Shown: piece after piece, positions 20,645-39,510 of the stretch
How the letters are laid out: every line of letters begins with the position of its first letter
Numbering within the stretch: position 1 is the stretch's first letter
Source: an uncultured Bacilli bacterium
GTDB taxonomy: Bacteria; Bacillota_I; Bacilli_A; RF39; UBA660
DNA: 57,619 nucleotides
Assembly (NCBI GenBank): GCA_947623935.1
Contig: CANQIE010000004.1
Location: 1-57,619 of the forward strand
Direction of reading: 5' to 3'
The notes under the pieces: model-generated
Database searches by the model: none
Told to the model about the DNA's origin: nothing
The model's input: the letters and a program-made list of their open reading frames with translations, nothing else
Made by a program: the position numbers and the translations under genes

Positions 20645-22414
20645 CTACGCTCCTATAGGAGCAAGCACAAGGCGAAACGAGCGGTCGACGTTCGCATTGC
20701 CATGGGTGCCATAAAACCAGAACACTCCTGCAGTCGAGCTATAAGTACAGTTGCCGCCGCGTTGGAGCCACGGGGTCGAAGAGATTACAAATCCTTGTTC
20801 ATCTCCATACCAGCCTGGAGTCTCTGATAAAGCATGTCCATAACATACTCCTTTATCGCATGCTGTTGCAGCTGCATCTCCGCTATATAAATCATAATAT
20901 TTTTCGTCTGGAAATGCTCGTCCATTTTCTACTGAACCACTATTTAATACTCCATTGAATCCTGAATTATATTGAGTAGTTCCACCACTTCTTGGTTTAC
21001 CAGTTCCATCATCTAATGCACCCATTACATACTCAATGGTTCCACCACTCATATCATATACTCCTGTTATATTTCCTGTCGTGGATGTTTTTAATCCGTT
21101 TGTTGAAGTATAATCTTCACTACATCTTGCAGCTCCTGTCCGAAATTGACTACAACTATTTATTAATACTTCCGTTTGATCTTTACCATATTTTCCATAT
21201 TTGCTTTGAGATAAGTATACTACTGCTCCCCATTCACTATTCTTACTCATATGTGTATCATAACTGGTTTGACTATTAGAAAATCCGTAAACATTATTAT
21301 TTGTTGTTTGCATCCTTCTACTTACTTCAAAAGCAGTTGATACTCGGATTCCTCTCCATGAAGTTACACTTGGTCTTATTTCTGGAGTATACGTTTCTAT
21401 ATCACATTCAGTATCTACCGAAAAATTTATTGCAGTACATTCTTCTTTACTGCTTGTTTCAAACTTTCCATACCAGAATCCAGTTAATTCATCACTTCCA
21501 AAAGTAAAAGCTGGATGCACTATATAATCATCGGTACTTACTGTATTACTAGTTCCATTGATAAAGTTGACTTTAATTTCCCCTGGATTTAGGTAGCATT
21601 CATAATTACCACTTACAATACTACTTGTGCAATTGCTTTTATATCCTCCAGCATTTTTTATACTTACATAATTGTATTCATATCTTGGAATCCATACCCA
21701 CATCGTGTTGATGTCATCCATAAGTATGGGTGTCCCTGCTTCTGCTGTTTGATAACTCTCTCTTTTCTTAGTACTTACTCCATCATCATCTAATTTTACA
21801 GTTACCGCATTCGCCCATTCTTGATTATAGTAATTGTACCATTGTTTAGTGGTATTTGCTTTTACCCATGACTTTTGACTTTCATCATAAACAACCGGTA
21901 TTAATCCTTCTACTAATTTAGGAGTATTGGGTTCTATCCTTTCATAAGTTTCCGTAATTTTACTTTCATTTTCCGCAACTACTAAAGTTTTATTGCTTAA
22001 TCCACATCTTCCATAAAAAGTTATAGTCTCATCACTAGTTCCATTATTCTTTAATCTTAAAATGTATGTCTTTGTATTTCCTATTGCTAAACTTTCTACT
22101 TCTATTGCACTTTCATTACTACTTGCTGCTGAAACTTCTATATTGTTTCCACTATAAGTGATTGTAGAGTGAATATTCGTTAAACTTTGATTGGTTAAAG
22201 TGATTTCTATCTCTCTTTCTGCACCAGCTTTTAAAGTTATTTGATTGTTTGTTAAATCTTTGCTTTCAATAGGACAAGAAACGTTTCCTACCGCAATGTT
22301 AAGGGCACCTTTCTTTTCAATTTTTATGGTGAAAAGTGCATAACTAAAACTAATAATCCCTACAATCATTAAAGTTATTACTATGCTAAATAGAATTTTA
22401 ACTTTATCTTTCAA
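20645..22414 (-). CDS. Membrane-anchored surface protein with C-terminal CLec/FGE-sulfatase-like fold; probable DGR target
   Basis: N-terminal signal/TM (ISFSYA), WVWIPRY, GFWYGKFE, EWGAVVYLS, GVYDMSGG-x-x-E, RGG...AGVF...SFRLVL C-terminus. Confidence 0.75.
   Translation of the reverse strand: MKDKVKILFSIVITLMIVGIISFSYALFTIKIEKKGALNIAVGNVSCPIESKDLTNNQITLKAGAEREIEITLTNQSLTNIHSTITYSGNNIEVSAASSNESAIEVESLAIGNTKTYILRLKNNGTSDETITFYGRCGLSNKTLVVAENESKITETYERIEPNTPKLVEGLIPVVYDESQKSWVKANTTKQWYNYYNQEWANAVTVKLDDDGVSTKKRESYQTAEAGTPILMDDINTMWVWIPRYEYNYVSIKNAGGYKSNCTSSIVSGNYECYLNPGEIKVNFINGTSNTVSTDDYIVHPAFTFGSDELTGFWYGKFETSSKEECTAINFSVDTECDIETYTPEIRPSVTSWRGIRVSTAFEVSRRMQTTNNNVYGFSNSQTSYDTHMSKNSEWGAVVYLSQSKYGKYGKDQTEVLINSCSQFRTGAARCSEDYTSTNGLKTSTTGNITGVYDMSGGTIEYVMGALDDGTGKPRSGGTTQYNSGFNGVLNSGSVENGRAFPDEKYYDLYSGDAAATACDKGVCYGHALSETPGWYGDEQGFVISSTPWLQRGGNCTYSSTAGVFWFYGTHGNANVDRSFRLVLAPIGA
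20649..20794 (-). other. Putative DGR variable region (VR) with 3' invariant end and terminal palindrome
   Basis: 77 of 136 nt are G+C over 20645-20780 (hand count) in an AT-rich gene; conserved residues use A-free codons, variable positions are NNC/NNT; palindrome GCTCCTATAGGAGC at 20649-20662. Confidence 0.7.
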
Positions 22415-22467
22415 ATTAAAACACCTCTTTCTATAGTATTTACTTTCCTATTTTTACTTATAACATA

Positions 22468-22496
22468 AGTATAAAATTAGATATTCTATTCGTCAA
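22468..22496 (-). promoter_or_regulatory. Sigma-A promoter of the CLec-domain gene
   Basis: TTGACG-N17-TATACT. Confidence 0.65.
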
Positions 22497-22517
22497 GAGA
22501 GTTCTTTAAAGAGAAGA

Positions 22518-24741: not shown

Positions 24742-25689
24742 ATGAAAGAGGTGAGATGTATGAATACTTTTCCTTATAGTGATAGCAATAAACGTTACCA
24801 CACACTCGACTATTTTCATAAAAAGAAGTTTGCATCGAAAGTTTTTAAAGTCAGTTTGAATTTAGGTTTAACGTGTCCTAATCGGGATGGAACCAAAGGC
24901 GTTGGAGGATGTATCTATTGTTCTAATTTAAGTGGCGACTTTGCGGGGAACAAAGAAGAAGATTTAAAGACCCAATTTGAAAGTGTAAAAGAGGTACTTT
25001 TAAAGAAATGGCCTAATAGTCTTTATATTGCTTATTTTCAAGCAGGAACGAATACCTATGCACCACTTTCCTTTTTAAAAGAAAAGTTTGAGGAAGTTTT
25101 AACTTACGATAAAGTAGTAGGTCTTCATATTGCAACAAGACCTGATGCCATTAGTGAAGAGTGTATTTCCTATTTAAAAGAACTAAGTAAAAAAACCTAT
25201 TTAGTCGTTGAACTAGGATTACAATCCATGCATGAAAAAACGGCTAAGTTTATTAACCGTGGACATGATCTTGCCTGTTTTGATTCCATGGTAAAACGCT
25301 TACGAAAAGAAAACATCAATGTCATTGTTCATATCATTAATGGACTTCCTTATGAGACTAAAGAAGATATGCTTGAGACGGTTAAGTACTTAAATACTTT
25401 GGATATTCAAGGCATTAAAATTCACATGCTCCATGTTTTAAAAAATACCCCTTTAGGGTTACTTTATCAGACCAAACCATTTCCCATTTTAACAAGAGAA
25501 GAATATGTTGATATTGTGGTAGATGAGTTACGACTACTCCGCCCTGAAATCGTCATTCACCGGATTACAGGAGATCCCAAAGAAGAAGATTTAATCGAAC
25601 CGAAATGGCTTATTAAAAAGTTCGGTGTCTTAAATGAAATCGATAAAGAAATGGTCAAAAGAGATTGCTATCAAGGTGATAGGTTATAA
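24742..25689 (+). CDS. TIGR01212-type radical SAM protein (YhcC/YtqA family)
   Basis: TCPNRDGTKGVGGCIYC, YFQAGTNTY, ELGLQS, INRGH, GIKIHMLHV. Confidence 0.9.
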   Translation: MKEVRCMNTFPYSDSNKRYHTLDYFHKKKFASKVFKVSLNLGLTCPNRDGTKGVGGCIYCSNLSGDFAGNKEEDLKTQFESVKEVLLKKWPNSLYIAYFQAGTNTYAPLSFLKEKFEEVLTYDKVVGLHIATRPDAISEECISYLKELSKKTYLVVELGLQSMHEKTAKFINRGHDLACFDSMVKRLRKENINVIVHIINGLPYETKEDMLETVKYLNTLDIQGIKIHMLHVLKNTPLGLLYQTKPFPILTREEYVDIVVDELRLLRPEIVIHRITGDPKEEDLIEPKWLIKKFGVLNEIDKEMVKRDCYQGDRL

Positions 25690-25733
25690 ATTAAAAGAAA
25701 TCGGTCATACTATCCTGTAGGAGGATCCTATTT

Positions 25734-26255
25734 ATGCCGATTTATTTATTATGTTTAGAAATCTTTTTTGCCAGAATCATCGATGTTTCTTTAGGTACTT
25801 TTCGTACGATTATTACGGTCAAAGGAAAATCTTTTTATGCTGCCATGATCGGTTTTTTTGAAGTCTTAGTTTGGTTTTTAGTTGTAAAAGAGGCCCTTAA
25901 TACTACCGAGACGGGTATTTGGATTGGAATTAGTTATGCTTTAGGGTTTGCCGCTGGAACTTATATTGGAAGTGTGTTATCACAAAAACTCATTAAGGGA
26001 AAACTCTCCGTTCAGGTTATTACCAGTAGTCATAACGAAAAATTAATTGATGAAATACGCAACCAAGGTTATGCTGTATCCGTTATGGACATCGATGGAA
26101 AAAATAAAGAAGAAGATAAATATATGTTATTTATCGAAATCGACGATTATCGACTCGAAGAATTACAAAAAATCATTCGTAAAAATGATAAAAAAGCCTT
26201 TTTAGTCGTAAATGAGACCAAACTGGTACAAAATGGATATTTTGTAAAAAAATAA
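25734..26255 (+). CDS. DUF2179/DUF5698 (YebE-like) membrane protein
   Basis: IFFARIIDVSLGTFR, GFFEVLVW, YALGFAAGTYIG. Confidence 0.8.
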   Translation: MPIYLLCLEIFFARIIDVSLGTFRTIITVKGKSFYAAMIGFFEVLVWFLVVKEALNTTETGIWIGISYALGFAAGTYIGSVLSQKLIKGKLSVQVITSSHNEKLIDEIRNQGYAVSVMDIDGKNKEEDKYMLFIEIDDYRLEELQKIIRKNDKKAFLVVNETKLVQNGYFVKK

Positions 26256-26280
26256 AAATCCTAGACGAAGCTAGGATTTC
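26256..26280 (+). terminator. Terminator hairpin between convergent genes
   Basis: AAATCCTAG-ACGAAG-CTAGGATTT; a second inverted repeat GTCACTAG-AA-CTAGTGAC follows at about 26289-26306. Confidence 0.55.
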
Positions 26281-26351
26281 AAAACAACGTCACTAGAACT
26301 AGTGACATTATTATTTTATGTGGAAGAATAAAAATTATACCTTTCATTTTA

Positions 26352-27065
26352 TTATTCTACTATTCTTTTTATAGAACTAATTTTAAAATCTACATTTTTT
26401 ATAATACTTCTACAAAACTCACATCGATTTCCTACCACATTTGCTCCACAATTAGGACATTTTACCACATTTTCTTTTTCAAAATCTTTTCTAAAAGTGA
26501 CCTCAAATTTCTCCGTCATTGGTTTTTCCCTATCTCCACTAATAAGATGTCCGTTGTGATCAAGAACATAGTTAATATAGGAAACTTCAATCATTAAAGA
26601 AGCCGTTTGTTTATATGAAGTACTATCTACTTCATATAAAGTGACCTTCTTTCTCTGAATATCGTTGATAATCCTTTTCCTTCCTACTTTTAAATCAAGA
26701 CTAATACCCGTATAGTATTGATAAAAAAGCTGTTTAGTGCTAATCATCTTCATCATGTTATAATCTAAATTGTTATAAGCTTCTTCAAACTTAACAAAAA
26801 GATCATAAAAGAAATCTTTCAGAGGATCTATATCCTCCGTATTAAAAATTGCTAACTTATTTTTGGATACATCTCTATAAACTTTTTTCTCTTTAGTATT
26901 ATCACTCGCTCTATAATCTACGATATTGTTTTTAAAATATTTTCTACTATTTATTCTTCTAATTGTATTAGCAATAGCTCGACCGATGAACACCCAAAAT
27001 AGTAAAGGGACTGTATCAAATACAATAAAAAAGATAAAACTCAAAAATACTTGTGTAAAATCCAT
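26352..27065 (-). CDS. Tim44-like domain protein with N-terminal TM and C-terminal zinc ribbon
   Basis: FVKFEEAY...INYVLD...ISGD pattern; CPNCGA...CEFC. Confidence 0.65.
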   Translation of the reverse strand: MDFTQVFLSFIFFIVFDTVPLLFWVFIGRAIANTIRRINSRKYFKNNIVDYRASDNTKEKKVYRDVSKNKLAIFNTEDIDPLKDFFYDLFVKFEEAYNNLDYNMMKMISTKQLFYQYYTGISLDLKVGRKRIINDIQRKKVTLYEVDSTSYKQTASLMIEVSYINYVLDHNGHLISGDREKPMTEKFEVTFRKDFEKENVVKCPNCGANVVGNRCEFCRSIIKNVDFKISSIKRIVE

Positions 27066-27094
27066 TTTCTATTCACCCTCTTTCCTATTAAAAT

Positions 27095-27685
27095 TTATCC
27101 TTTGTAATGGGGATTCACTAACGTTCTACGACAATAAGAACATTTTCCTGTTTTTTTAGATAAAATATTATCTGCTCCACAATAAGGGCAATGCACATAA
27201 TTTGTATTTTTAGCTTTTTCTCTTTTGATTTTCATTTCCATATCATTTGCTTTTGATATTTCTGCATTTCTACTTTCAGTTTTATTTATATAATTTCTAA
27301 TTTCACTATTAATTTTGTTACTTACTTTATTAAAGATTTTTCTAAAAATAAATGATAGTATTAAAAATATGATGCCAATAGAGATTAATAATTTACTAAA
27401 CTTTATAAAATTTATATTATATAAGTCAGAAGTTAATATATTACTTAAATATGGAATTGTATCTGTTTTTATTTTTACAAGATCTAAGATGCTTGATAAA
27501 AATTTGGGAACAAGAAGAAGAATTCCTACTGAGAGAATAATTATGGGTGTAGAAATTTTTTTCCTATTACTATATACAAAATATCTTAAAATTAATAAAC
27601 AAATACCTAAAAATGGAATGAAATAAAGAGTTACCAATATAATTGGAATACTGGCTAAAAGTTTTATAAAAAAATTTTCTTTCAT
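27095..27685 (-). CDS. Membrane protein with C-terminal zinc ribbon
   Basis: 3-4 TM segments; CPYCGA...CSYC. Confidence 0.65.
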   Translation of the reverse strand: MKENFFIKLLASIPIILVTLYFIPFLGICLLILRYFVYSNRKKISTPIIILSVGILLLVPKFLSSILDLVKIKTDTIPYLSNILTSDLYNINFIKFSKLLISIGIIFLILSFIFRKIFNKVSNKINSEIRNYINKTESRNAEISKANDMEMKIKREKAKNTNYVHCPYCGADNILSKKTGKCSYCRRTLVNPHYKG

Positions 27686-27699
27686 TTTCCATTCCCCTA

Positions 27700-30537
27700 T
27701 TATTTATTGAAATAGGCCAAATCATATTCTAATGATGGTGTTATTCTGATAGGTTGATTTGATTCTGTATAATATGAATTTGCCTTTGTAACACATTTAT
27801 CTTTTTTACATTCAACATCTACATATCTTTTTTCACCAGGATAATTATTATCGTATACACCTATATAATAATAATTTGGATTTTCAATATCCTGTACTAA
27901 ACTAATTGCATTAATAGCATGTAATCCACCACTATAACTTGATGAAATTACTAGAGGATCATGATCATCTAACCTTGCCTTTATTATGTTTATAAAACCT
28001 GATGCTCCAGTATATCCTGTTGTTTCTGTGCCTATAACATTTCTTAACCATAAAGTAAAATCAGTTGATGAAGAATAGGAAGCTGTTGAGTTTTGTTTTA
28101 TAAAACTTGCATATATAGCATTAAACATTTGCTTATCATCATTGCTAAGAAAACTACTTTTTTGCATTTTATCTTCATTTAACAATAAATTTTCTGTTGT
28201 TTTATAATTTACTCCCCATTTTTCTATTTGTTCTTCTTTAGACAATCCAGACTTTTCTTCTTTTATATCATAAATTCCAGAATTTTCTATTTCTTTCTTA
28301 TACTTATCATTAATAATAAATACATCATCTTTTAACACTCTAAAATCTGCTGGAACTTCTTCACCAAATATATCATATCCAAAAGTATATTTTAAAGCAT
28401 TAGTTTTTAATTTATAATCATACAAATTACTATAATTTTTAAAATATGTATTAGATAAATCATATTCATAAGATCTACTACCACCAGATGTTAGAGAACC
28501 AACATTTAATGGCAATGCTTTTTTATAGTATAATTCTGCAAAGGTAGCCATTCCAAAACAATGTCCTTCAGCAGATAAGTTTGTTCCATAATTTCCAAAT
28601 GAGAATCCATCACGATTTACTACGAAGCCACTATCGGCTACTAATATACCATCTACCTCACCATCATTATCAAGATCTACTAAATCATCATCTAATTCCG
28701 CTCCAATATTTTCAAATAATTCAGTTAAACCATTAACATTACTTGAAGAAAAAAACTTGCATCCTGTACTATTTGAAATATTTGATAATTCAGTATTATA
28801 TGAACCTCCACCAAAACCTATTGAACATATTTTTACATCGCTAGAATTTGCTTTTTCAATTATTTTTTCAGTTTTACTATTCAATGATGAATCTTGCCCA
28901 TCAGTTAATATAACGATAAACTTATTATCACTATCTTTAGAAAATTCTCCAATACCACTTGTTAATGCGTTCCCGATATTAGTACCTTCTGATTCAGTTA
29001 TAAAATTACCATTCATTCCACTTAAAGTAGATTTAATTGAATCTGCATCTGTTCCTATTTTAGAAGCATTTGCATAGTCACTTCTAAACTCTGATAATCC
29101 CATTTGATAATTTTTTTGAGATAATCTTGATACTAGATCACTTGTTAATGTAAATCTTACTCCCGCTTCATCAAAGCCATCTAACTTAGATTCTCCAAAT
29201 AATCCTCCTGAATACTCTTTTCCAGTTATTTCTTTATATTGAGCATTACTATACATACTCCAAGAATTATCAAGAATAAACAATATTTGAGTGGTCTCTT
29301 CTTCTTTTAATAATGACTCATCACCTACTACATAATTGGAAAAATGTTTTAATTTAGCTGTTAAAGTATTATTATCTTTATCAATAGTTGTTTCAACCTT
29401 CTCATATTTTGATTCTTTTTCATTGTAATAAAAGATAGATAAATTATCCTCATTTAGTCCATATTTTGATAATTCTTCATCTGTATATGAAATTGTAACT
29501 ACTGCTTCATCAATACTTCCATCAGTATAGAATGTATATAAATTATCAATCATACCTTTTTTATTACTAATTTTAGTATTTGAATTTATCTCAGCTATTG
29601 TACTTGCAATATTTCCTTTACCAGAAACAGAAAGTTTTAAGCCATCTGTTGAATAATCATAAGCGAGTTCCCTCTCTCCATCTTTTTTTCCATCACCTTT
29701 GGAATCTGACTTTAACGGATCTAAACCTAATTCTATTTCATCATAATCATTTAATCCATCTCCATCTGTATCCTTTTTATTTGGATCAGTTTTGCTTGTA
29801 TTAATTTCATAATCATCATCTAAACCATCCATATCACTATCAGATAATAATGGATTCGTTTTGTATTCTTTTTCTTGTTTATTTGTTAAATTATCTAAAT
29901 CTAGATCTTGATCAGAATCTAAATCTATTTTATAGTCTAATGTAAGTTCTTTTTCTTTCATATCAAATGGTATAATTTGATATTCTTTACTTATTTTCTT
30001 TAACTTATAGGCAGCTGTTATTTTACATTTTCCAGTTGCTTCAGTTAAATCCCATTTTACTTCTAAACCATTGCTTTCAACATCACCACAAGTAGCAGCA
30101 TATTTTATTTCATCAATTTTTGTATCATCGGAAAAATTTACACCTAATTTTATATTTGACTGTGTTACATAAGTTAATTTAGAATCAGAATAATTATCAT
30201 TCCAACTTAACTTTTCAAATCCTATAAAATGACTATATAAAAATGCTCCAACACCAATTACTAAAACACAACAACATACAATTGTAATATGTTTTTTATG
30301 ATTAGCAACAAAGTTTTTCATTTTATTAACTTTTGGCTTTATAAAATCTGAACTGTTTTTTGAAAATTTTTCTGTCATAGTAACATTTGTATTTAAACTT
30401 GTTTGTTGAATTGGTTGAACGTTATCTTGATTTTTCTCTTCTTGGTTAGGAACTGATAATTCTTTAGTATTTCTTCCACAAGAAGGGCAAAATTCTTCAT
30501 TACCATTCAGTTTATTTCCACAATTTGGGCAAAACAT
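27700..30537 (-). CDS. Zinc ribbon-TM-Ca-binding repeats-HFS domain-VWA-papain-like domain protein
   Basis: MFCPNCG...FCPSCG; DxDxDG repeats; LKHFSNY; MIDAS DNSWS...T...LTDG; GHCFGM...HAI...YDNNYP; start after SD AAAGGAG. Confidence 0.75.
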   Translation of the reverse strand: MFCPNCGNKLNGNEEFCPSCGRNTKELSVPNQEEKNQDNVQPIQQTSLNTNVTMTEKFSKNSSDFIKPKVNKMKNFVANHKKHITIVCCCVLVIGVGAFLYSHFIGFEKLSWNDNYSDSKLTYVTQSNIKLGVNFSDDTKIDEIKYAATCGDVESNGLEVKWDLTEATGKCKITAAYKLKKISKEYQIIPFDMKEKELTLDYKIDLDSDQDLDLDNLTNKQEKEYKTNPLLSDSDMDGLDDDYEINTSKTDPNKKDTDGDGLNDYDEIELGLDPLKSDSKGDGKKDGERELAYDYSTDGLKLSVSGKGNIASTIAEINSNTKISNKKGMIDNLYTFYTDGSIDEAVVTISYTDEELSKYGLNEDNLSIFYYNEKESKYEKVETTIDKDNNTLTAKLKHFSNYVVGDESLLKEEETTQILFILDNSWSMYSNAQYKEITGKEYSGGLFGESKLDGFDEAGVRFTLTSDLVSRLSQKNYQMGLSEFRSDYANASKIGTDADSIKSTLSGMNGNFITESEGTNIGNALTSGIGEFSKDSDNKFIVILTDGQDSSLNSKTEKIIEKANSSDVKICSIGFGGGSYNTELSNISNSTGCKFFSSSNVNGLTELFENIGAELDDDLVDLDNDGEVDGILVADSGFVVNRDGFSFGNYGTNLSAEGHCFGMATFAELYYKKALPLNVGSLTSGGSRSYEYDLSNTYFKNYSNLYDYKLKTNALKYTFGYDIFGEEVPADFRVLKDDVFIINDKYKKEIENSGIYDIKEEKSGLSKEEQIEKWGVNYKTTENLLLNEDKMQKSSFLSNDDKQMFNAIYASFIKQNSTASYSSSTDFTLWLRNVIGTETTGYTGASGFINIIKARLDDHDPLVISSSYSGGLHAINAISLVQDIENPNYYYIGVYDNNYPGEKRYVDVECKKDKCVTKANSYYTESNQPIRITPSLEYDLAYFNK

Positions 30538-30553
30538 AAATACACTCCTTTCC

Positions 30554-30585
30554 AAAAAAGGATAACTAAAGCAATAGTTATCCTC
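30554..30585 (-). terminator. Intra-operon intrinsic terminator
   Basis: GGATAACTA-TTGCTT-TAGTTATCC-TTTTTT on the minus strand, just before the SD of the VWA gene. Confidence 0.65.
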
Positions 30586-30600
30586 ATTTAATATCTAGTT

Positions 30601-31287
30601 TTACTTTGCTTCAGCTGGAATTGTTATTGAACCAGAATTATTATAATTACTATAATTAATTTCAACTACTTCAGCAATTCCCATTATTTCCATTTCAAAA
30701 TTCATTTTTTCTATATAATTAGAAGAATTAACAAGAATACTTATATTTATATCATTGTTTACAATTTTACTTGTATCAATACTAGAATCTGCTTGAGCCA
30801 TTGCTGCTGCAAGTTTCTCACTTGATATTGTACCAGTATATAATGTATTACTTCCTTGTGATTCTTCTTTAATATCAAAAATATAATTATTTAAATTTAA
30901 CCATGAATTCGTATTCGAACTTTTCACAGAAGTAGAAGTCCATTTACCATTTGAAGCATCATTACTATATGGAGAATATACCTTCGAATATGATTTTCCA
31001 TTGCCATAGTCATAATATTCTTCTGTATTAACTCCATAAGTAGATGTTGAACAATACCCTATTTTATTCTTACGATCTTCCTTACAACTCATTGTTGTTG
31101 TTACATCCATAATTCCTGTTTTCGTAGTAATTTTTGCAGTATAACTAAAGTTATTTAAATTATTTAACATTACATCCTTTACTTTAGCTAGTTGACTATC
31201 ATTATTAACTTTGTCTTTTGTAAAACTACACCCAGCAACTCCAATCAAAACTACCATTAAAATAAATAAATTAAATATGTGTTTCAT
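30601..31287 (-). CDS. Lipoprotein (LppX/DUF6612-like beta fold)
   Basis: MKHIFNL...lipobox VAGC; ends YSNYN...ITIPAEA. Confidence 0.65.
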   Translation of the reverse strand: MKHIFNLFILMVVLIGVAGCSFTKDKVNNDSQLAKVKDVMLNNLNNFSYTAKITTKTGIMDVTTTMSCKEDRKNKIGYCSTSTYGVNTEEYYDYGNGKSYSKVYSPYSNDASNGKWTSTSVKSSNTNSWLNLNNYIFDIKEESQGSNTLYTGTISSEKLAAAMAQADSSIDTSKIVNNDINISILVNSSNYIEKMNFEMEIMGIAEVVEINYSNYNNSGSITIPAEAK

Positions 31288-31288
31288 A

Positions 31289-31909
31289 TTAAATCTTATT
31301 TCCACACATGAAACATTGAATTGCTGTTTCATCTACTTGATTACCACAGTTTGGACAGAATTTTTTATTTACTGCACCATTTTGAACTGGTTGTTGCATT
31401 TGTGGTTGTGCTGGTTGTTGGCAGTTTTGTTGAGGATTAACATTTTGACTATTATATTCTTGATTAATATTAACTTGTGATTCAGTTGGTTTTTTATATA
31501 TAATTGCATGAGCAACTAAACATATAATTCCTAACCATAATAAATAAAAGCCTAGTCCATTTTTTAAATATTCGCTATTAAAATCAAGTTTTATATTTAA
31601 GTAAATAACGAATCCCACTACTAATATTGTTGGTATTAAAGACATTTTAGGATTGGTTACATTTGCTATTCTTCTTCCAAGATTTGTTGTAAATAATTGT
31701 GGGATATATTTTTCAATAAAATCCTTAAATATAAATAATGCATTTGCTAGTGTTAAAACTACAATTACTTTACCTTCCCAATATCCCCATAAAGATATTG
31801 ATTGGGAATGCCCTAGAAGAGAAAAAGTAAAATATGGTAACAGTGTTCCTAAAATGAGTGTAGTTATTCCTATTAATGCCAATAATCTTTTATGTCTTAT
31901 AAATTCCAT
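31289..31909 (-). CDS. 4-TM membrane protein with Q/P-rich linker and C-terminal zinc ribbon
   Basis: GTLLPY...GLGFYL; QQPAQPQMQQP; FCPNCG...CFMCG. Confidence 0.7.
   Translation of the reverse strand: MEFIRHKRLLALIGITTLILGTLLPYFTFSLLGHSQSISLWGYWEGKVIVVLTLANALFIFKDFIEKYIPQLFTTNLGRRIANVTNPKMSLIPTILVVGFVIYLNIKLDFNSEYLKNGLGFYLLWLGIICLVAHAIIYKKPTESQVNINQEYNSQNVNPQQNCQQPAQPQMQQPVQNGAVNKKFCPNCGNQVDETAIQCFMCGNKI
31388..31447. repeat. 60-bp direct repeat, copy 1 (encodes Q/P-rich linker)
   Basis: 57/60 identical to 34169..34228. Confidence 0.9.
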
Positions 31910-31910
31910 A

Positions 31911-33464
31911 TTATTCCTCCTCTGAATATATTAATTTTAAATTCGTATTATAATAATTTTTCTTATTGTTTTCCTTAATTGTTATATAATTTGAATAAAC
32001 ATTTAAACTATTATCATCACTAGTCTTTAGTGTTCTTCCAGTAATAAGATTGTAAATAATTTTTTCATTTGTAGAAGAATCTTTGTAATAAATGAATGTG
32101 CTTGTTTCATCATCATAAATATATGAAGAATCAAATTCTGCAACAGTTTTTCCATTCTTTAAATCAACTATATAAGTTTTGTCATCTTTTCTTGCCATGA
32201 CATAATTTTTTCCTTTAGATGTTAAATACTGATATAATAAACTTCCAAAATAATCAATACTATACCATTCACACGGTAAAATTTCTTCTTCACCTTTTAC
32301 TAAACCATAACCATTGCCACAACTTTTTTTAGTCATTCCAGTTAAAGTTTCCCATTCATTTAAATTGATATTTACATCACTATTATTATTTGAAGGTTGA
32401 GATGATAAAATGTTACCTGTCTTAACATCTAAATAAGAATATCTATTACTATAATCTTTATCTTCATCACGAATTAGTACATATCCCGAAGAATAATAAT
32501 TTAAATCTACATTTTTACTATTAGTTTGATAAGCTATTTCATTATTTTGAACGTACATTAAAGTTACGAATTCCCAAGGATCACGTTTAGAAACTTGAAA
32601 TATATTATCATCTTCATCTAAAATATAATTTTCTGTATAATCATAAACTAATTTACCTGTATCACAATTAACAATTGCATATTTTTCGTTATCAACATTT
32701 GTAATACAATATCTTTCAGTTAATGTAGAATTTGTATCTGATGGAGTTATTGAAAAATAATCTTCCCCGGTTTGATACTTATAAGTATAAGTAACTTTAC
32801 CAGATGTATCCATTATTCCTGCTGATTTTCGATCCACATCTTCCCAACTTAAATATCCGTATTTTTCATATTTAACTTTAACTTTGTCTGAAGATATTTT
32901 CTTTAACGAACTATTATATAATTGATCATTGATTATCCAAATATTATATTCAGAAACATATTTAATATCGGTAGAATATTCTGCTTGAGCTTTAGCATTT
33001 CCTTTTTTATCAATTAACTGATATATTTCACGATTTGTTCCTTCTATATTAACCGTAGTTTTTACCATAGCATAATTCCCTTGGAAATCTGTTGCTACTT
33101 CGTAAACTGGTTCTAAAACAAATTTACCATTTGAGTTAATATATCCATATTTATCATCTTTTTTTACTTTAATTAAGGCATCATCAAATATCACATTTAT
33201 ATCTGAATTTTTATTTTCAAAAAATTTATACCCCACAAATAAAACTATCGCTATTAATAATAAACCTCCAATAATAAACAATAATAATTTCTTTTTTGAT
33301 TTGGTATTATTTATATTATTAGGTGTTGAATTATTTGGAAAATTATTATTTAACTGATTAACATTTTGATTGTTATAATTAACATTTGAACTATTGCTAT
33401 AGTTCAAATTCATATTATTTTGTACATTCCCATTGTTTTGATTTAAGCTATCGCTATTATTCAT
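31911..33464 (-). CDS. WG-repeat membrane-anchored protein with N-rich cytoplasmic tail
   Basis: Asn-rich N-terminus, TM, KYGYINSNGKFVLEPVYEVATDF repeat. Confidence 0.7.
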   Translation of the reverse strand: MNNSDSLNQNNGNVQNNMNLNYSNSSNVNYNNQNVNQLNNNFPNNSTPNNINNTKSKKKLLLFIIGGLLLIAIVLFVGYKFFENKNSDINVIFDDALIKVKKDDKYGYINSNGKFVLEPVYEVATDFQGNYAMVKTTVNIEGTNREIYQLIDKKGNAKAQAEYSTDIKYVSEYNIWIINDQLYNSSLKKISSDKVKVKYEKYGYLSWEDVDRKSAGIMDTSGKVTYTYKYQTGEDYFSITPSDTNSTLTERYCITNVDNEKYAIVNCDTGKLVYDYTENYILDEDDNIFQVSKRDPWEFVTLMYVQNNEIAYQTNSKNVDLNYYSSGYVLIRDEDKDYSNRYSYLDVKTGNILSSQPSNNNSDVNINLNEWETLTGMTKKSCGNGYGLVKGEEEILPCEWYSIDYFGSLLYQYLTSKGKNYVMARKDDKTYIVDLKNGKTVAEFDSSYIYDDETSTFIYYKDSSTNEKIIYNLITGRTLKTSDDNSLNVYSNYITIKENNKKNYYNTNLKLIYSEEE

Positions 33465-33466
33465 AA

Positions 33467-34336
33467 CTATTTAAATAAATCTAATATATTGTCTAATCCA
33501 CCAGTTACAGAACTCATAAGTAATTTCATGTAAGCATAATATCCAGCAATAATAAGAATTCCGAAACATACTAAATTGAAATATATCTTTTTATCCTTTT
33601 CTAAGCTTAATTCATTATTCATAAATTCATACATAATTATTAGGGAATATACAAGACCAATAATTGTAAATACCATACTTAATGGACTCCAAATCATACC
33701 AAGAATTGGAGATAAAATCATTGCTCCACATACTGCTGGAATTACAGAAGTAGCTGATATGGATAATGATTTAATAAAACTTAATTGTTTTTTTACTACT
33801 AAACTTCCTAAGTAGAAGACAATAGTTATTGCTAGAATTATACCAGCATAGATTAAGAAGTTTTTACCAATAACTTCTAACCATTTTATATTTTTTAAAT
33901 TATCCCATTGCCATGAATAAGTATATCCATCAGTCCAGCTATAACTTGCGACTCTTACAGTAGATAAAATTGTTTGAATTAAATTTGATAGTGTCATTAC
34001 TACTGTAACAATCAAGGTTAATATGATAGAAGTCTTACCATTATTTAATTTGCCTTCCTCTTCTTTAAAGCATTGAAATGGTTTTATTAATATTGCAATT
34101 AAATACATAAGATAATTTAATGGTGATGTATTAATATTAACTGCTTGTGTTGTTTGAACATTATTTATTGGTTGTTGCATTTGTGGTTGTGCTGGTTGTT
34201 GGTAGTTTTGTTGTGAATTAACATTTTGGTTTAATTCATGCGCCTGATTTAAATTATCAGTATTTAAAGTATTACCACATTTAATACAAAATTTTGATTG
34301 TGGGTTATTATATGTACCACAGTTTGAACAATTCAT
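33467..34336 (-). CDS. Zinc ribbon plus Yip1-like membrane domain
   Basis: CSNCG...FCIKCG, Q-rich linker, LIKPFQCF followed by 5 TM. Confidence 0.7.
   Translation of the reverse strand: MNCSNCGTYNNPQSKFCIKCGNTLNTDNLNQAHELNQNVNSQQNYQQPAQPQMQQPINNVQTTQAVNINTSPLNYLMYLIAILIKPFQCFKEEEGKLNNGKTSIILTLIVTVVMTLSNLIQTILSTVRVASYSWTDGYTYSWQWDNLKNIKWLEVIGKNFLIYAGIILAITIVFYLGSLVVKKQLSFIKSLSISATSVIPAVCGAMILSPILGMIWSPLSMVFTIIGLVYSLIIMYEFMNNELSLEKDKKIYFNLVCFGILIIAGYYAYMKLLMSSVTGGLDNILDLFK
34169..34228. repeat. 60-bp direct repeat, copy 2
   Basis: 57/60 identical to 31388..31447. Confidence 0.9.
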
Positions 34337-34341
34337 TTTTT

Positions 34342-35832
34342 TTACTCCTTTCTCTGATTCGTACTATCCTTAATAACACTGGCTAAAGGATTTTGTTCCA
34401 TTAAAGTATTCAACAACTGATTTCCTAAACTTTCTCCTTCAACATGAGTGTTATTTACACCGCTTATTTTAGGATTTGTAAGACCTTTTTCTGATTTTAT
34501 AAATTGATCTACTTTTCTTAAATTAGAAATATTGGTTTTAGTTTCTGTCTCATAGGTATGGCGCGCATTTGTATTACGATAACGGGTAAACATGATGAAA
34601 AAGTAAATAAAACCAGCCAATAAAAACAACCAATTATACTTAAAATCGATAAAAATCATAGCTAAAACACCCAATAATTCTACAAGAATAGAAAGTCCTA
34701 TCAAGAGTGGCATATGAATAGGGACACTTCCCATAGCCTCTTTAGTTCTCGCATTTACGGCTACATAATGTAATATTTTATTGTTACCATTGACTTGCAA
34801 ATAACTGTATAACCAAACTGGTAAATAGGCTGCTTTCCATTGTTGCCCTTTTACATCTACTTGTTGATTACTCCAGGCAACACCTCTATCGTAAGTTTCT
34901 ATAGTTTGATTGGCCGAAAATCGAGCTACATCTTTTGACTGTGTATCGACAATAGGTTTTAGCGCATCGACATTGACATCTCTTCGCTCAGAAGTATATC
35001 CTTTTAAATAATTAGAATTAAATCGAACACAATTTTCTAAATCAAAAGGCATAATCGCATTGATAACGTTGTTCGTTTTATTCGATGAAGTATTATTTAG
35101 TTTATCCGAACTAGATTCCACTGTTAATCCTTCAATAACTAAATCAAATTCTCGTTCTACATGATATAAATCTGCATCATAATAAACTCGAGTATTCTCT
35201 CCACTTCCCTGATAATAAGTTCTTGTTTGATGCTCTCCTGATCCTGATAAATTTACATGTGAATTTATATCGACCAACATGTAGGGCAAATAAACACCCA
35301 TGATGTTTTCGGTAGTGAATTCTTTCTTAAATTTAGGATGAGCGAAAAACTTTCTTTTTCCGACAAATTTCGCAATTTCTTTCTTAGCATCCTCTTTAGA
35401 AATAGCAAAAGGAAGTACCACATCTGGAATTGCTCCATTTGGAATCTGCTGATTAATAGACAACGTATTTCTACACCAGTGACATCTAGCTTGTGTAGCC
35501 GAAGCAGTATCAATCACTACTTCAGCCCCACAACTTTCACACTTTAAAGTTATAATATTCGAAGTATCCTGAACAATATTTTGAGTTCCAGAAGCTAAAA
35601 CAGTCCCTTGTAATTTATTTAAATCCGTTACCAAGCCTTCTACTTTTTGAGGTTCAAATTCATGGCGACAAAAATTACAACGTAGTTTACCAGTTTTAAC
35701 GTTTAATGATATATCTGTAGCACCACATTTAGGGCATTTATCTTGTCCATTTTTGGCGCTTTCATCCGTTTGCAAAACAACGGTATCTTGTACCGTTGTA
35801 ATGTTTTCATTTGTATTTTCATTATTTTGCAT
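34342..35832 (-). CDS. YdjG-like double zinc-ribbon membrane protein
   Basis: CPKCGA...CNFC, CESCGA...CHWC, PDVVLPF, GVYLPY, YLPVW, C-terminal TMs. Confidence 0.75.
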   Translation of the reverse strand: MQNNENTNENITTVQDTVVLQTDESAKNGQDKCPKCGATDISLNVKTGKLRCNFCRHEFEPQKVEGLVTDLNKLQGTVLASGTQNIVQDTSNIITLKCESCGAEVVIDTASATQARCHWCRNTLSINQQIPNGAIPDVVLPFAISKEDAKKEIAKFVGKRKFFAHPKFKKEFTTENIMGVYLPYMLVDINSHVNLSGSGEHQTRTYYQGSGENTRVYYDADLYHVEREFDLVIEGLTVESSSDKLNNTSSNKTNNVINAIMPFDLENCVRFNSNYLKGYTSERRDVNVDALKPIVDTQSKDVARFSANQTIETYDRGVAWSNQQVDVKGQQWKAAYLPVWLYSYLQVNGNNKILHYVAVNARTKEAMGSVPIHMPLLIGLSILVELLGVLAMIFIDFKYNWLFLLAGFIYFFIMFTRYRNTNARHTYETETKTNISNLRKVDQFIKSEKGLTNPKISGVNNTHVEGESLGNQLLNTLMEQNPLASVIKDSTNQRKE

Positions 35833-35835
35833 AAG

Positions 35836-37116
35836 CTATATTCCTAATAATTTATTTTTTACTTTATCATAATCTTCTTGAGAAATCGCTCCAGCATCAA
35901 GTAATTTTTTCATTTCCAACAATTTAGCAGTAGCATCTTCTCCACTAGGAGCGGCTGGACTAGCCTCATTTAATACTTCTGGCGCAGGTTGTGCTTGTGC
36001 TGCTGGAGTGGAAGCAACTTGAGGTTGAACTGGAGCAGCTGGAGCAGGTTGAGGTTGATTAAAGGCTTGATAACTAGAAGGGGTTACAGGTTGTTGAAGA
36101 GATGACATCATACCACCACTAGCATTCATTCCCATACCCATAAATGCCATAGCACTTCCACCACCATTATTACCAGCAGCTTCAATACCACGAGCAACTG
36201 ATTGTTGCATGAAAGCGTTTCCTCTAGCACCAGATAAGGCATCGGCTTTTTGAACATCTTTCATCAAAGCCTTCGTATCTTCATCGTATTCAATTGATAA
36301 AATCGCTGTTTTGACAATTTCAAGTCCACGACCATTTTTCCAACCATATGCTTCTTCAACAGCTTGAGACATTGCTTGAGCAAGGCCTAATTGATCACTT
36401 TGAATTTTAGACATACGATTTCCCTTATCGGGATCGTTTGTATATTTTGCAAAAGCAGCAGATAAAGTACTTACTACTTCTGTATATAACTGATTTCCAG
36501 CATCGCTATCCATATCTGCAAAATCAAAATCAGGTCCTTCTGATTGTAAATAAGTCATAGGAACAAAATTCTTTACAAATAATAATGGGTCAACGATTTT
36601 TAAAGTATAGGTTCCACGCATAATAGCACCTACTTGTGTACCAAAGTAAGCGTCATCCCAATAAACTATATTTGAAGTCCCAAACTTATTATTTGGAATT
36701 TCTTTTAAATTAACATAGAATGCAGTCTGTTGGCTTCCAGGCATTCCTCCAAATTTGAAACGTTCCCAAGATTGTCCTATCGTAGATGCTAAAATGCCAT
36801 CTCCTGAAAACATCGATTTTGAGTTAGGATCATCGGATGAGAAAATAAAACCGCCTGGTTCAGCAATAAAACCAGTTACAGCACCATCTTGTAAAGTGAT
36901 AAGAGCCATACCTTCTGGAACCATAATCTTACTTCCATTGGTAATAATATTTTCAGATCCCTTTGTATTTTCTCCTCGATTTGCATTTGTACCATAAGGA
37001 ACTGCTTTAGTAAGTGCAACCGTTTCTGAAACTCCTTGTTTTGGTCCATAGTAATCTTTCCATTGATCTGCAAAAGTACCTCCTAAGGCACCTGCAAAAG
37101 CTTTTATAAAGCCCAT
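35836..37116 (-). CDS. SPFH/band-7 domain protein (YdjI/'virion core protein'-like) with C-terminal SHOCT
   Basis: MGFIKA...ADQWKDY, IITNGS, WERFKFGG, FYVNLKEI..NKFGT; LLEMKKLLDAGAISQEDYDKVK (SHOCT). Confidence 0.85.
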   Translation of the reverse strand: MGFIKAFAGALGGTFADQWKDYYGPKQGVSETVALTKAVPYGTNANRGENTKGSENIITNGSKIMVPEGMALITLQDGAVTGFIAEPGGFIFSSDDPNSKSMFSGDGILASTIGQSWERFKFGGMPGSQQTAFYVNLKEIPNNKFGTSNIVYWDDAYFGTQVGAIMRGTYTLKIVDPLLFVKNFVPMTYLQSEGPDFDFADMDSDAGNQLYTEVVSTLSAAFAKYTNDPDKGNRMSKIQSDQLGLAQAMSQAVEEAYGWKNGRGLEIVKTAILSIEYDEDTKALMKDVQKADALSGARGNAFMQQSVARGIEAAGNNGGGSAMAFMGMGMNASGGMMSSLQQPVTPSSYQAFNQPQPAPAAPVQPQVASTPAAQAQPAPEVLNEASPAAPSGEDATAKLLEMKKLLDAGAISQEDYDKVKNKLLGI

Positions 37117-37172
37117 TAAAAAACACCTCTTTCTTTAGAATAGTTATCGCTACTCTTTATTTTTATAATATT

Positions 37173-37200
37173 ATTATAAAACTACCCCCCCCCACGTCAA
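37173..37200 (-). promoter_or_regulatory. Sigma-A promoter with G9 homopolymer in the spacer (candidate phase-variable)
   Basis: TTGACG-TGGGGGGGGGTAGTTT-TATAAT, 16-nt spacer. Confidence 0.75.
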
Positions 37201-37312
37201 CCCTTTGTTAATTTTTCACAAGAAAGATTTACGTAAAATTTTTATTTATGCAGTGGTAAACTTAAAGTAGACAACATGAGAGGGTATGTAGACAATTATT
37301 TACTTCATAAGT

Positions 37313-37345
37313 AAAAGACTGTTGAAAACAATTGATCAACAGTCT
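37313..37345 (-). terminator. Intrinsic terminator separating the upstream operon from the SPFH operon
   Basis: AGACTGTTGA-N10-TCAACAGTCT-TTT on the minus strand. Confidence 0.65.
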
Positions 37346-37366
37346 AAAACCCATTTTTACATCATT

Positions 37367-38692
37367 TTATTGATTGTTAACAAAATTATAAACTTTTAAT
37401 AGACCATCTAAATTGTAGTCTACTACTTCCTGTTCTTTACCTTCTCTATATAGATGTAATTTATTTTGATTGTCCAAATAAACAAACTTCCCTATTTGTT
37501 TGTTACTTTCATCACCAAAATTAGGTCCAAAATAATAGAATAGTATTTCTTTAATGTCTTTAGCTTCTACGAAATTTAGATAATACGTATTATAATCTTC
37601 TCTAGTAAGGTATTTACTTTTATCTAGTTCTGCTATTGAAATGGAAGCATCTGATAGATAATAAACTTTATTTTCTTTTTCATAAAAGGCGCCAGATTTT
37701 GAATTTGAGTCAATAAATCTATCCACCTTTTCACTTATTTTAGTATTAACTTTAATATCCCCTGCTAATCCATTTAAAATGTCATTAATACCAAATAAGC
37801 CATAAAGTATATGATCAGAAGTTAATATATAAGGAAAATAAGAAACCTCTTTTACGTCATCCATAATTTTTATATAGGTATCTTGTTTTTCCGTTTTACC
37901 ATAAAAAGTATTATTTTCATCTACATAGCCATTAAAATCATCTATAGAAATTACATATTTTGCCTTTATATTCATTTTTTCAAAATTCAGTTTGCGATTA
38001 AAACCACATGATGTTTCCTTTTTTGCAATCATATTATATGCATATACATTATTGTCCACATCTAAAAATAGGCCGCATCCATAACCACTAGTACTCATTT
38101 GTTTTATACTAGAAGCTAATTGAACATAATCTTTGTCCGTGGTTGTATAAATGGAAGTGTTAAAATCTTTAGGATATAAATAGACTTCATTATTATCCAT
38201 TAAATAGAATCCATTTTGAACGACAACAGGAGTAAATGGAAGGTCATCTCGTTTATTAAAATTTTTTTGACCTATACCACATGAAAAATACCCTTGGTCC
38301 GTTGTGACAGAAACACGTTCAATCGTTCTTCCAAAATAAGTATCTACTTTGCAGAATAAGATATTGTTATCTATATCGGAGGGCTTGCCTTCCTCTTTTT
38401 TAGTGTTTGATTTTAATAATAATACTAATCCCAAAATCAACAACATAACAGATAAACTTATTAAAATAATTATTGTTTTATTTTTATTGTTCATTACCAT
38501 AGAATTATCGGTTACTGGTTGAGTTGGTAATTCATAATTATTTATTTGATTATTCGGTTGATTTATAACTTGTGTCGTGACAGGTTGACTGTTCACATTA
38601 CCAGCAGATGATATTGAGCTTAAAGGATATCCACATCCTGCACAAATAGTTGAATCTAGATTGTTTTCAAATCCACACTTTGGACATTTCAT
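37367..38692 (-). CDS. Zinc ribbon-TM-beta-propeller (RCC1-like) protein
   Basis: MKCPKCG...CAGCG, N/Q/P linker, TM, repeated FYLMDNNEVY/FLDVDNNVY blades. Confidence 0.6.
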   Translation of the reverse strand: MKCPKCGFENNLDSTICAGCGYPLSSISSAGNVNSQPVTTQVINQPNNQINNYELPTQPVTDNSMVMNNKNKTIIILISLSVMLLILGLVLLLKSNTKKEEGKPSDIDNNILFCKVDTYFGRTIERVSVTTDQGYFSCGIGQKNFNKRDDLPFTPVVVQNGFYLMDNNEVYLYPKDFNTSIYTTTDKDYVQLASSIKQMSTSGYGCGLFLDVDNNVYAYNMIAKKETSCGFNRKLNFEKMNIKAKYVISIDDFNGYVDENNTFYGKTEKQDTYIKIMDDVKEVSYFPYILTSDHILYGLFGINDILNGLAGDIKVNTKISEKVDRFIDSNSKSGAFYEKENKVYYLSDASISIAELDKSKYLTREDYNTYYLNFVEAKDIKEILFYYFGPNFGDESNKQIGKFVYLDNQNKLHLYREGKEQEVVDYNLDGLLKVYNFVNNQ

Positions 38693-38721
38693 TTACTTTC
38701 CTACTTTCTATTTCTATTTTT

Positions 38722-39510
38722 TTATTGACCAACACTTACTGTTTCTGGTAAAGTGCTTCCACCATCGATTACAAATTCACTTCCGGTGATGTAACTAGAT
38801 TCTTCACTCGCTAAAAAAGCAGCAAGTTCACCTAGTTCATTAATTTTTCCAAGGCGTCCTAAAGGAATCGCATCACTTATAGCATCGATGACACTACTAG
38901 GATCTTCTTTGTTGGTCATTTCAGCAATATTTTGAACCATAGGTGTTTTAATATAACCCGGAAGAATTGCATTAACATTGATGTGATAAGGTGCATATTC
39001 ACGAGCTAAAGATTTTGTAAAACCAATTAAAGCCGCTTTTGAAGTAGCATATGCTACTTCTCCTGGATCTGCAACCATTGGTCCAGTTACAGACGATAAG
39101 TTGATAATCTTTCCATAATTATTTTCAACCATATAAGGAAGGATGGCTTTAGTTACATTCCAAGTACCAATAATATTGATATCAAAGTGATAGTCTCGTA
39201 CTTCATCACTCATCGTAAGAAAAGGCTCTAATTTAGCAACACCTGCATTGTTTACTAAAATATCAATTCTTCCATAATTTTTAATGACATCATTTACGGA
39301 TTCCTCTACTTTAGCTTTGTCGCGAATATCCACTAGATATCCTTTAATAGGATATCCTTTTTCTTTTAAGACTTCCTCGACTTCAAAAACACGTTCATTG
39401 TAATCTGCCACAATCACAGTTGCTCCATACTTCAAAAACATTTTAACAACACCTAAGCCATTTCCCATGGCTCCTCCGGTTACATAAGCAATTTTTCCAT
39501 CTAATTTCAT
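38722..39510 (-). CDS. ucpA: SDR family oxidoreductase UcpA
   Basis: TGGAMGNG, NNAG, SSVTGPMVADPGEVAYATSK, DGGSTLPET. Confidence 0.85.
   Translation of the reverse strand: MKLDGKIAYVTGGAMGNGLGVVKMFLKYGATVIVADYNERVFEVEEVLKEKGYPIKGYLVDIRDKAKVEESVNDVIKNYGRIDILVNNAGVAKLEPFLTMSDEVRDYHFDINIIGTWNVTKAILPYMVENNYGKIINLSSVTGPMVADPGEVAYATSKAALIGFTKSLAREYAPYHINVNAILPGYIKTPMVQNIAEMTNKEDPSSVIDAISDAIPLGRLGKINELGELAAFLASEESSYITGSEFVIDGGSTLPETVSVGQ

Follow-up and report, generated by a model that had tools for sequence, protein, structure and literature searches.

Homopolymeric switches in promoter spacers are a textbook property of pathogen surface antigens. In the genome of an uncultured gut commensal of the order RF39, an uninterrupted run of nine guanines (G9) lies in the spacer of a putative promoter immediately 5' of a nine-gene operon that begins with an SPFH-domain protein. 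This location raises the question of whether the tract acts as a phase-variation switch for the operon, as proposed in a preliminary description of the locus, and from where such an element might have come. The source genome (G000), of the genus Faecenecus/CAG-988, comprises 1.15 Mb in 50 contigs, with 32.7% G+C and an estimated completeness of 93%. The window analyzed here is its contig C4, a stretch of 57,619 nucleotides. A literature search for RF39 with phase variation returned nothing on topic by title, and a search for SPFH with phase-variable returned nothing on topic by title and the start of the abstract. Among the titles listed for Faecenecus, which in the available part of the source equals GTDB CAG-988 in the family CAG-611 of the order RF39 (PMC8035907), none dealt with promoters.

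The SPFH operon and its putative promoter

The elements of the promoter and the operon are the following:

37316-37345, minus strand: terminator-like hairpin 3' of the upstream gene, whose stop is at 37367; -18.5 kcal/mol
37195-37200, minus strand: -35 hexamer TTGACG
37194, minus strand: single T between the -35 hexamer and the G run
37185-37193, minus strand: G9 run of the spacer (C9 on the plus strand)
37179-37184, minus strand: TAGTTT between G9 and the -10 hexamer
37173-37178, minus strand: -10 hexamer TATAAT, with a spacer to the -35 hexamer of 16 nt
37117-37172, minus strand: native 5' leader with the RBS AGAGGTG (37130-37124)
35836-37116, minus strand: first gene, an SPFH/Band_7_1 + SHOCT protein of 426 aa (Pfam)
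26352-35832, minus strand: eight more co-directional ORFs, with zinc-ribbon, Yip1, WG-repeat, VWA/TSP3 and Tim44-like matches (Pfam)
26255-26280, minus strand: terminator-like site 3' of the last gene

When we re-read the window sequence, the minus strand from 37200 to 37173 was TTGACG-T-G9-TAGTTT-TATAAT as first described, with a 16-nt spacer and with the -10 box 56 nt from the ATG (37116) of the 426-aa SPFH ORF. The two hexamers match the sigma-70 type at 11 of 12 positions and enclose G9, an arrangement like that of the porA and tp0126 type of promoter, in which a homopolymer of at least about 8 nt lies between recognizable -35 and -10 elements. This pair of hexamers is the top sigma-70-type match both within 35500-39000 and within 25500-37400. 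Since promoter-like matches are no more numerous than in shuffled sequences in either interval (18 versus 17.0 ± 3.6 in the first and 73 versus 79.5 ± 9.8 in the second), the promoter scan by itself proves nothing, and the activity of the promoter and its start site are predictions from the DNA. The tract was also said to be the one long G/C homopolymer of the window, and we confirmed that no other G/C run of at least 6 nt occurs in these 57.6 kb. It is not a chance run, as the base composition predicts 0.16 G/C runs of nine or more in the whole 1.15-Mb genome. A G-quadruplex was considered as a further reading of the tract and discarded, since a lone G run would not be able to fold one by itself.

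The nine-gene operon of the preliminary description was likewise recovered as nine tightly spaced ORFs of the same strand, the first starting at 37116 and the last ending at 26352, with neighboring ORFs 1-45 nt apart or slightly overlapping. The SPFH protein scored above the Pfam cut-offs for PF13421 (Band_7_1; 27.6 bits, cut-off 24), which was also matched on the genome, and for PF01145 (Band_7; 27.4 bits, cut-off 23.6); its C-terminal tail is SHOCT-like, with a score under the SHOCT cut-off. A crude Kyte-Doolittle scan marks one or more hydrophobic segments in each of the eight downstream ORFs. When the upstream ORF and the nine ORFs of the operon were searched for domains, no PspA-type family matched at E <= 0.001. 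An NCBIfam search with five proteins of the operon and two of the surface family introduced below gave no match above a family's cut-off. The G+C content falls to 25-27% in the operon's distal two thirds (positions 26000-34000), versus 32-37% in most of the window, and internal promoters are possible within the AT-rich operon. The upstream terminator that had been proposed at 37313-37345 to insulate the operon is a candidate. The hairpin at 37345-37316 is strong, with a 10-bp stem and a z score of -3.8 (0 of 200 shuffles as good), but it is followed by only four U (UUUU) and was absent from the consensus terminator scan.

Another promoter-like region with TTGACG is present on the minus strand at 22412-22500 of the window, where it precedes a small membrane-protein ORF. 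Its leader and RBS resemble the SPFH leader (AGAAAGAGGTGTTTT), and it gave a weak BLAST match.

Cassette copies across the genome and the origin of the upstream region

The length distribution of G/C runs in the genome is bimodal, with 11, 0, 6, 33 and 4 runs of length 6, 7, 8, 9 and 10, where 31, 5.1, 0.83, 0.14 and about 0.03 are expected. Runs of 8-10 nt thus number 43 versus about 1 expected, an excess of about 40-fold, and lengths 6 and 7 are depleted. A promoter cassette holds 42 of these 43 long runs, always with the G on the coding strand, and the tract of the SPFH locus is among the 33 runs of G9. The cassette is laid out as an A-rich block, ATTAACAAAAAG, TTGAC with G, C or A as the sixth base, T, G8-10, TAGTTT and TATAAT. 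It occurs as 36 copies of a major type, five of a minor type and one deletion variant at a contig end; the consensus AAAAAATTAACAAAAAG is conserved at 90% or more over the 36 major-type cassettes, in which this form of the -35 hexamer is kept. The copy at the SPFH locus equals the consensus save for 2 bases upstream of the -35 hexamer. TTTACA-N7-TGTAAA palindromes are found in many cassette copies.

The downstream ORF could be read for 37 of the 43 runs, the remaining six being five cassettes cut by contig ends and one intragenic run. In 36 of these 37 cases the ORF belongs to one BLAST-linked family of surface proteins that share a conserved membrane anchor at the N-terminus; the SPFH gene stands alone outside this family. 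Among four family representatives searched against Pfam, Bact_surface_Ig-like exceeded its cut-off in one protein alone, FGE-sulfatase matched below its cut-off in two, and two had no match. At the SPFH locus the cassette core is present, but the family leader and a paralogous surface gene are absent downstream. The preliminary description had rightly placed the tract within the spacer of a near-consensus promoter immediately 5' of the operon. Its picture of a feature peculiar to the SPFH operon gave way, with 42 cassette copies genome-wide, to that of a transplanted copy of the surface-protein family's promoter module. This shifts the story from a switch that evolved for the SPFH operon to an operon that would have acquired a family promoter, switch included.

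Several further observations concern these runs. The minor cassettes (C1:25011, C1:26007, C2:23045, C36:9548 and C39:127) have the form TTGACT, G8-9, TTAACTTTAT, TATAAT with a nominal spacer of 18-19 nt, and precede a sub-family of short paralogs (265-290 aa), two of the copies lying 1 kb apart in tandem. The sole long run outside a cassette, at C21:6426-6433, is a G8 at about residue 141 within a 1562-aa ORF and is a candidate frameshift-type switch. Dozens of positions with G8 or longer are present in other genomes of the bacterial family (G015, G018, G013, G003 and G002); overlapping matches number 121 in G015 and 108 in G018, and most lie outside the strict promoter pattern, which indicates other poly-G contexts in this bacterial family.

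Upstream of the SPFH gene, the roughly 120 nt 5' of and including the -10 box (37293-37173) form a mosaic whose short modules also precede surface-family genes:

37249-37293, minus strand: repeat module A (two GTCTAC words ... ACCACTGCA), common to family intergenic regions
37232-37247, minus strand: repeat module B, 16 nt, common to family intergenic regions
37201-37216, minus strand: A-rich block and ATTAACAAAGGG directly 5' of the -35 hexamer, cassette core (36-cassette consensus)

Queries of 46 and 22 nt for these modules gave almost no copies, and the counts given here rest on shorter cores. The 24-nt core of module A has 5 copies, 4 of them at 47-66 nt upstream of a G tract, and the window copy is identical to C15:4892 and C24:19925. 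Module B has 7 copies at 0-1 mismatch, 6 of which are 38-60 nt upstream of a G tract. The window is 100% identical to C15 across module A and to C24 across the A-B junction, and BLAST homology to the family loci extends over about 37308-37157. Where the preceding family gene ends, an inverted repeat (AACGTC ... GACGTT) often stands ahead of module B, for example at C1:193, C14:1531 and C40:9146.

The SPFH promoters of two congeners and of 160 more distant loci are ordinary predicted promoters without G runs. In the congener G006, the ortholog is preceded by TTGAAT, a 17-nt T-rich spacer and TATAAT in the same place relative to the leader; in the congener G001, the promoter is of the extended -10 type. 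No G/C run of at least 7 nt was found anywhere in the locus in 80 related species-genome loci (61-74% protein identity), nor near the SPFH start in 80 metagenome loci (57-71% identity), two of which carry a run of 7 far away. No same-species strain was found among these 160 loci, the best SPFH protein identity being 74% on genome contigs and 71% on metagenome contigs, and an SPFH protein query matched none of the five genomes G002-G005 and G007. Many of the relatives (L001-L080) have the SPFH gene behind an extended -10 type promoter (TGATATAAT), and in the leader that follows, 5' of the RBS, the conserved pairing ATAGGA ... CTATTC may mark a conserved hairpin. Two SPFH homologs with 66% identity (L040 and L043) lie in Candidatus Nanosyncoccus / Saccharibacteria records, far from Bacillota, a placement for which horizontal transfer or a binning error is possible.

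The family mosaic, taken together with the ordinary promoters of the orthologs, points to capture of the family's promoter by the operon. DNA homology to the G006 ortholog (79%) begins at about 37181, which places the join between the cassette and the native leader within or beside the -10 hexamer. On the 3' side of the -10 box, the sequence abandons the family leader consensus and aligns instead with the leader of the G006 SPFH ortholog. We infer that the native SPFH -35 hexamer and spacer were exchanged through recombination with an intergenic region of the family, the crossover probably lying in the shared T-rich -10 region. In all 82 related loci SPFH is followed by gene 2 of the operon, and in none of the 82 is the upstream gene of the window found, so that synteny breaks exactly at the promoter. 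The genome also contains a second, canonical Band_7 gene (C6:139-930), adjoining a convergent gene. In G006, the gene immediately 5' of the SPFH operon encodes a protein that by eye resembles stomatin/Band_7-type SPFH proteins. Its position next to the operon there and that of the canonical Band_7 gene on a separate contig in G000 fit a rearrangement at the promoter.

Seven sequencing runs hold part of the stretch, all as Logan contigs and none of them RNA, and four come from a single rabbit-gut sample, possibly the source. In two runs of one sample (X1 and X3), a 3028-nt Logan contig covers 34173-37200 with 0 differences and carries G9, contigs being a form of data that drops rare variants. 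As it extends from within the operon across the leader, the -10 hexamer and G9 up to the -35 hexamer, it ties the promoter core physically to the SPFH gene. The Logan contigs of both runs end at 37200 and resume at 37264, and linkage to the upstream gene, from 37264 on, is supported by the MAG assembly only. Another run (X5) holds the species at a depth of 2-3, with the promoter outside its coverage, and X7 holds diverged relatives only.

Tract length among homologous promoters

Within the genome, the spacer of the 36 major-type copies measures 15, 16 and 17 nt in 1, 32 and 3 cases, respectively. Three copies (C1:145, C12:1002 and C27:10071) hold 16 nt via base substitutions at the edge of the tract. 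This constancy suggests selection on spacing rather than free slippage. Among 40 relatives searched, the exact cassette was present in one further congener, G005, where the 18 cassettes retrieved carry G8, G9 and G10 in 4, 13 and 1 cases and where all 11 readable downstream ORFs resemble the N-termini of the family by eye. These 18 loci included 16 with a usable upstream flank, and 11 could be matched to a tract-bearing locus of G000. The run length differs in 3 of these 11 flank-matched pairs and is equal in 8, including one G8/G8 pair; some pairs may be paralogs.

A looser pattern (TTGA, G8 or longer, TATAAT) was found in 10 of 121 genomes of the bacterial family, with 0 for a reversed control. 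As counted from the listed strings, the run extends from G9 to G14 across 12 promoters with near-identical flanks in G015, which belongs to another genus, and from G9 to G11 across 9 such promoters in G048. In three other genomes the element is nearly constant: the total length is 28 nt in 7 of 7 promoters of G117, and G8 is carried by 8 of 8 promoters of G065 and by 12 of 13 among those listed for G067. The preliminary description had regarded invariant length among relatives as evidence against a switch. Tract length does vary among homologous promoters with identical flanks, and such differences fit the footprint of slipped-strand change, but the predominance of 16-nt spacers and of equal pairs leaves that proposal only partly upheld. 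The pure G run is kept across genera with differing flanks, which suggests that the run itself is selected, for mutability or for recognition. Since a promoter with an 11/12 match may stay active at 15-17 nt, the effect of slippage could be small.

Missing mismatch repair was considered as a cause of tract instability and was ruled out, because genes for MutS (855 aa) and MutL (607 aa) are present in the genome. In the contig data, a variant row with a C inserted behind 37184 had a depth of 34 of 604 in X1 and 10 of 633 in X3, from short contigs of the 42 paralogous cassettes. The summed depth of about 600 corresponds to about 40 copies at about 15x, and the genome has two true G10 copies, so that the row is not assignable to the SPFH locus.

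Interpretation and related systems

We propose that a cassette captured from the surface family drives the SPFH operon and that slippage in its G run tunes expression of the operon, and we give this reading a probability of about 0.55. The G9 tract would then form the spacer of a housekeeping-sigma promoter which did not originally belong to the operon. The cassette, consisting of the A-rich block, ATTAACAAAAAG, TTGACNT, G9, TAGTTT and TATAAT, would derive from the paralogous, membrane-anchored surface proteins, and recombination at the shared T-rich -10 region would have swapped the ancestral SPFH promoter for it, so that the nine-gene operon would now be transcribed from the cassette. Replication slippage by one unit could leave a minority of cells with a spacer of 15 or 17 nt in place of 16, and this shift could raise or lower transcription of the whole operon, acting as a dimmer more than as a strict on/off switch. 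G9, with its 16-nt spacer, would be the prevailing and probably the expressed state. The parts of this proposal differ in strength. It is very probable that the tract functions within a promoter which the operon took over from the surface-protein family; a slippage dimmer at the SPFH promoter is plausible.

It is also possible, though we consider it the less likely account, that the G run is a fixed element, a conserved structural or protein-recognized part of a lineage-specific promoter that defines a regulon which the SPFH operon joined and in which it is co-regulated, with length changes being rare and without a role in switching. The 32 of 36 spacers of 16 nt, the substitutions that preserve this distance, the 8 of 11 equal pairs, and the constancy in G065 (8/8 G8), G067 (12/13 listed G8) and G117 (7/7) would all be expected of such an element, as would the presence of mismatch-repair genes; ATTAACAAAAAG directly 5' of the -35 hexamer and the TTTACA-N7-TGTAAA palindromes could be its operator sites. 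However, a need for spacing or binding alone would not call for a pure homopolymer across genera with differing flanks, and G+C-rich spacers generally weaken sigma-70 promoters. The ranges of G9-G14 and G9-G11 on the same flanks in G015 and G048 and the true one-unit changes in G000 and G005 are likewise difficult to reconcile with a fixed element, and the depletion of G/C runs of 6 and 7 nt elsewhere (11 versus 31 and 0 versus 5) is expected if G runs are unstable.

The cassette might alternatively be a neutral by-product that came with the synteny-breaking recombination, expression of the operon depending mainly on read-through, internal promoters or a leftover native -10 element. Synteny is indeed broken at the promoter, alternatives exist in that promoter-like sites are as frequent as in shuffles, and only four U follow the upstream hairpin. 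We nevertheless regard this as unlikely, as the cassette promoter is the top match on the operon strand (11/12) and is placed relative to the leader as the promoter of the ortholog is, the native -35 hexamer and spacer are gone, and the hairpin that read-through would have to pass is strong (z -3.8). A technical origin, either a chimeric assembly join at a repeat or a poly-G read artifact, is suggested by the cassette being a 42-copy repeat, by the Logan contigs that stop at 37200 and restart at 37264, and by the many MAG contigs that end 100-180 nt from a cassette. This seems very improbable given that the 3028-nt contig joins the operon to G9 and the -35 hexamer with 0 differences in two runs, and given that the same cassette occurs in the MAG of another species and analogous ones in 8 further genomes of the family.

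Capture of a cassette with a slippage-prone spacer would place the SPFH locus close to several described systems. The porA gene is a single outer-membrane porin gene of a Gram-negative pathogen. In Neisseria meningitidis, the poly-G between its -35 and -10 hexamers sets their distance and a one-unit change alters transcription, according to the available part of PMC7864442. The likeness lies in a G homopolymer that sets the -35/-10 distance. The difference is that porA is a single gene, whereas here a multi-copy cassette of an RF39 gut commensal stands before a nine-gene SPFH operon and switching is only predicted. For Treponema pallidum, the same source in its available part describes a poly-G between the -35 and -10 hexamers of tp0126 with an optimum at 17 nt and a tprL tract in which G9 predominates within isolates and G8, G10 and G11 are minor forms, and likens these promoters to the meningococcal porA spacer (PMC7864442). 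That organism belongs to another phylum, most of its tpr tracts lie just upstream of the transcription start and not in the spacer, and the available part of the source does not describe capture by a non-surface operon (PMC7864442). In both T. pallidum (tp0126/tpr) and the genome studied here, poly-G promoters serve a paralogous family of surface proteins.

The vlp genes of Mycoplasma hyorhinis form a multigene family of surface lipoproteins with a poly-A in the promoter spacer of each paralog. A reduced-genome lineage of Mollicutes type also has an own spacer homopolymer for each surface paralog; its tracts are poly-A, its proteins are repeat lipoproteins and it has no known SPFH operon target, whereas the tracts here are poly-G and the proteins are TasA-like/FGE-type. 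Campylobacter jejuni, with its small AT-rich genome, carries some tens of G8-G11 tracts with a mode near G9. These are mostly coding and act by frameshift, and the organism is not known to encode MutS/MutL; here, in contrast, promoter spacers contain 42 of the 43 tracts, and genes for both MutS and MutL are present.

For the operon itself, the relevant comparison is pspA-ydjGHI of Bacillus subtilis, which is regulated by stress signals and is not known to be controlled by a homopolymer. This system (samGHI), the subject of PMC8581546 and PMC13713150, combines a Band_7_1-type SPFH protein with small membrane and zinc-ribbon partners. PF13421 was matched in B. subtilis in a control search. The operon described here differs in having no PspA-type domain in the ten ORFs scanned and in its greater length of nine genes, which include VWA, Yip1 and WG-repeat proteins.

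Taken as a whole, the locus presents a known kind of switch with a new target, and its interpretation as phase variation is partly supported. New here would be the scale, since a commensal from the uncultured order RF39 carries 42 promoter tracts on a genome of 1.15 Mb, as well as the evidence for a promoter module moving between loci by recombination and the conserved non-antigen membrane operon (SPFH and eight membrane-associated partners) found under the cassette. More tentatively, we speculate that a portable, slippage-prone cassette spreads by recombination from a hypervariable surface family to unrelated operons in RF39, and that the SPFH operon, a widely conserved membrane-scaffold system, has in this way been wired into a stochastic network of 42 promoter switches, spread over the 1.15 Mb of a genome with mismatch-repair genes retained. 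If this were true, clone-mates would differ randomly in their surface coat and in a core system of membrane organization and the envelope. If the tract is fixed, the locus would represent an ordinary promoter replacement. If switching is real, dimmed and full-expression cells would coexist, providing a natural experiment on the role of the SPFH operon, and the locus would show how contingency promoters can recruit new genes.
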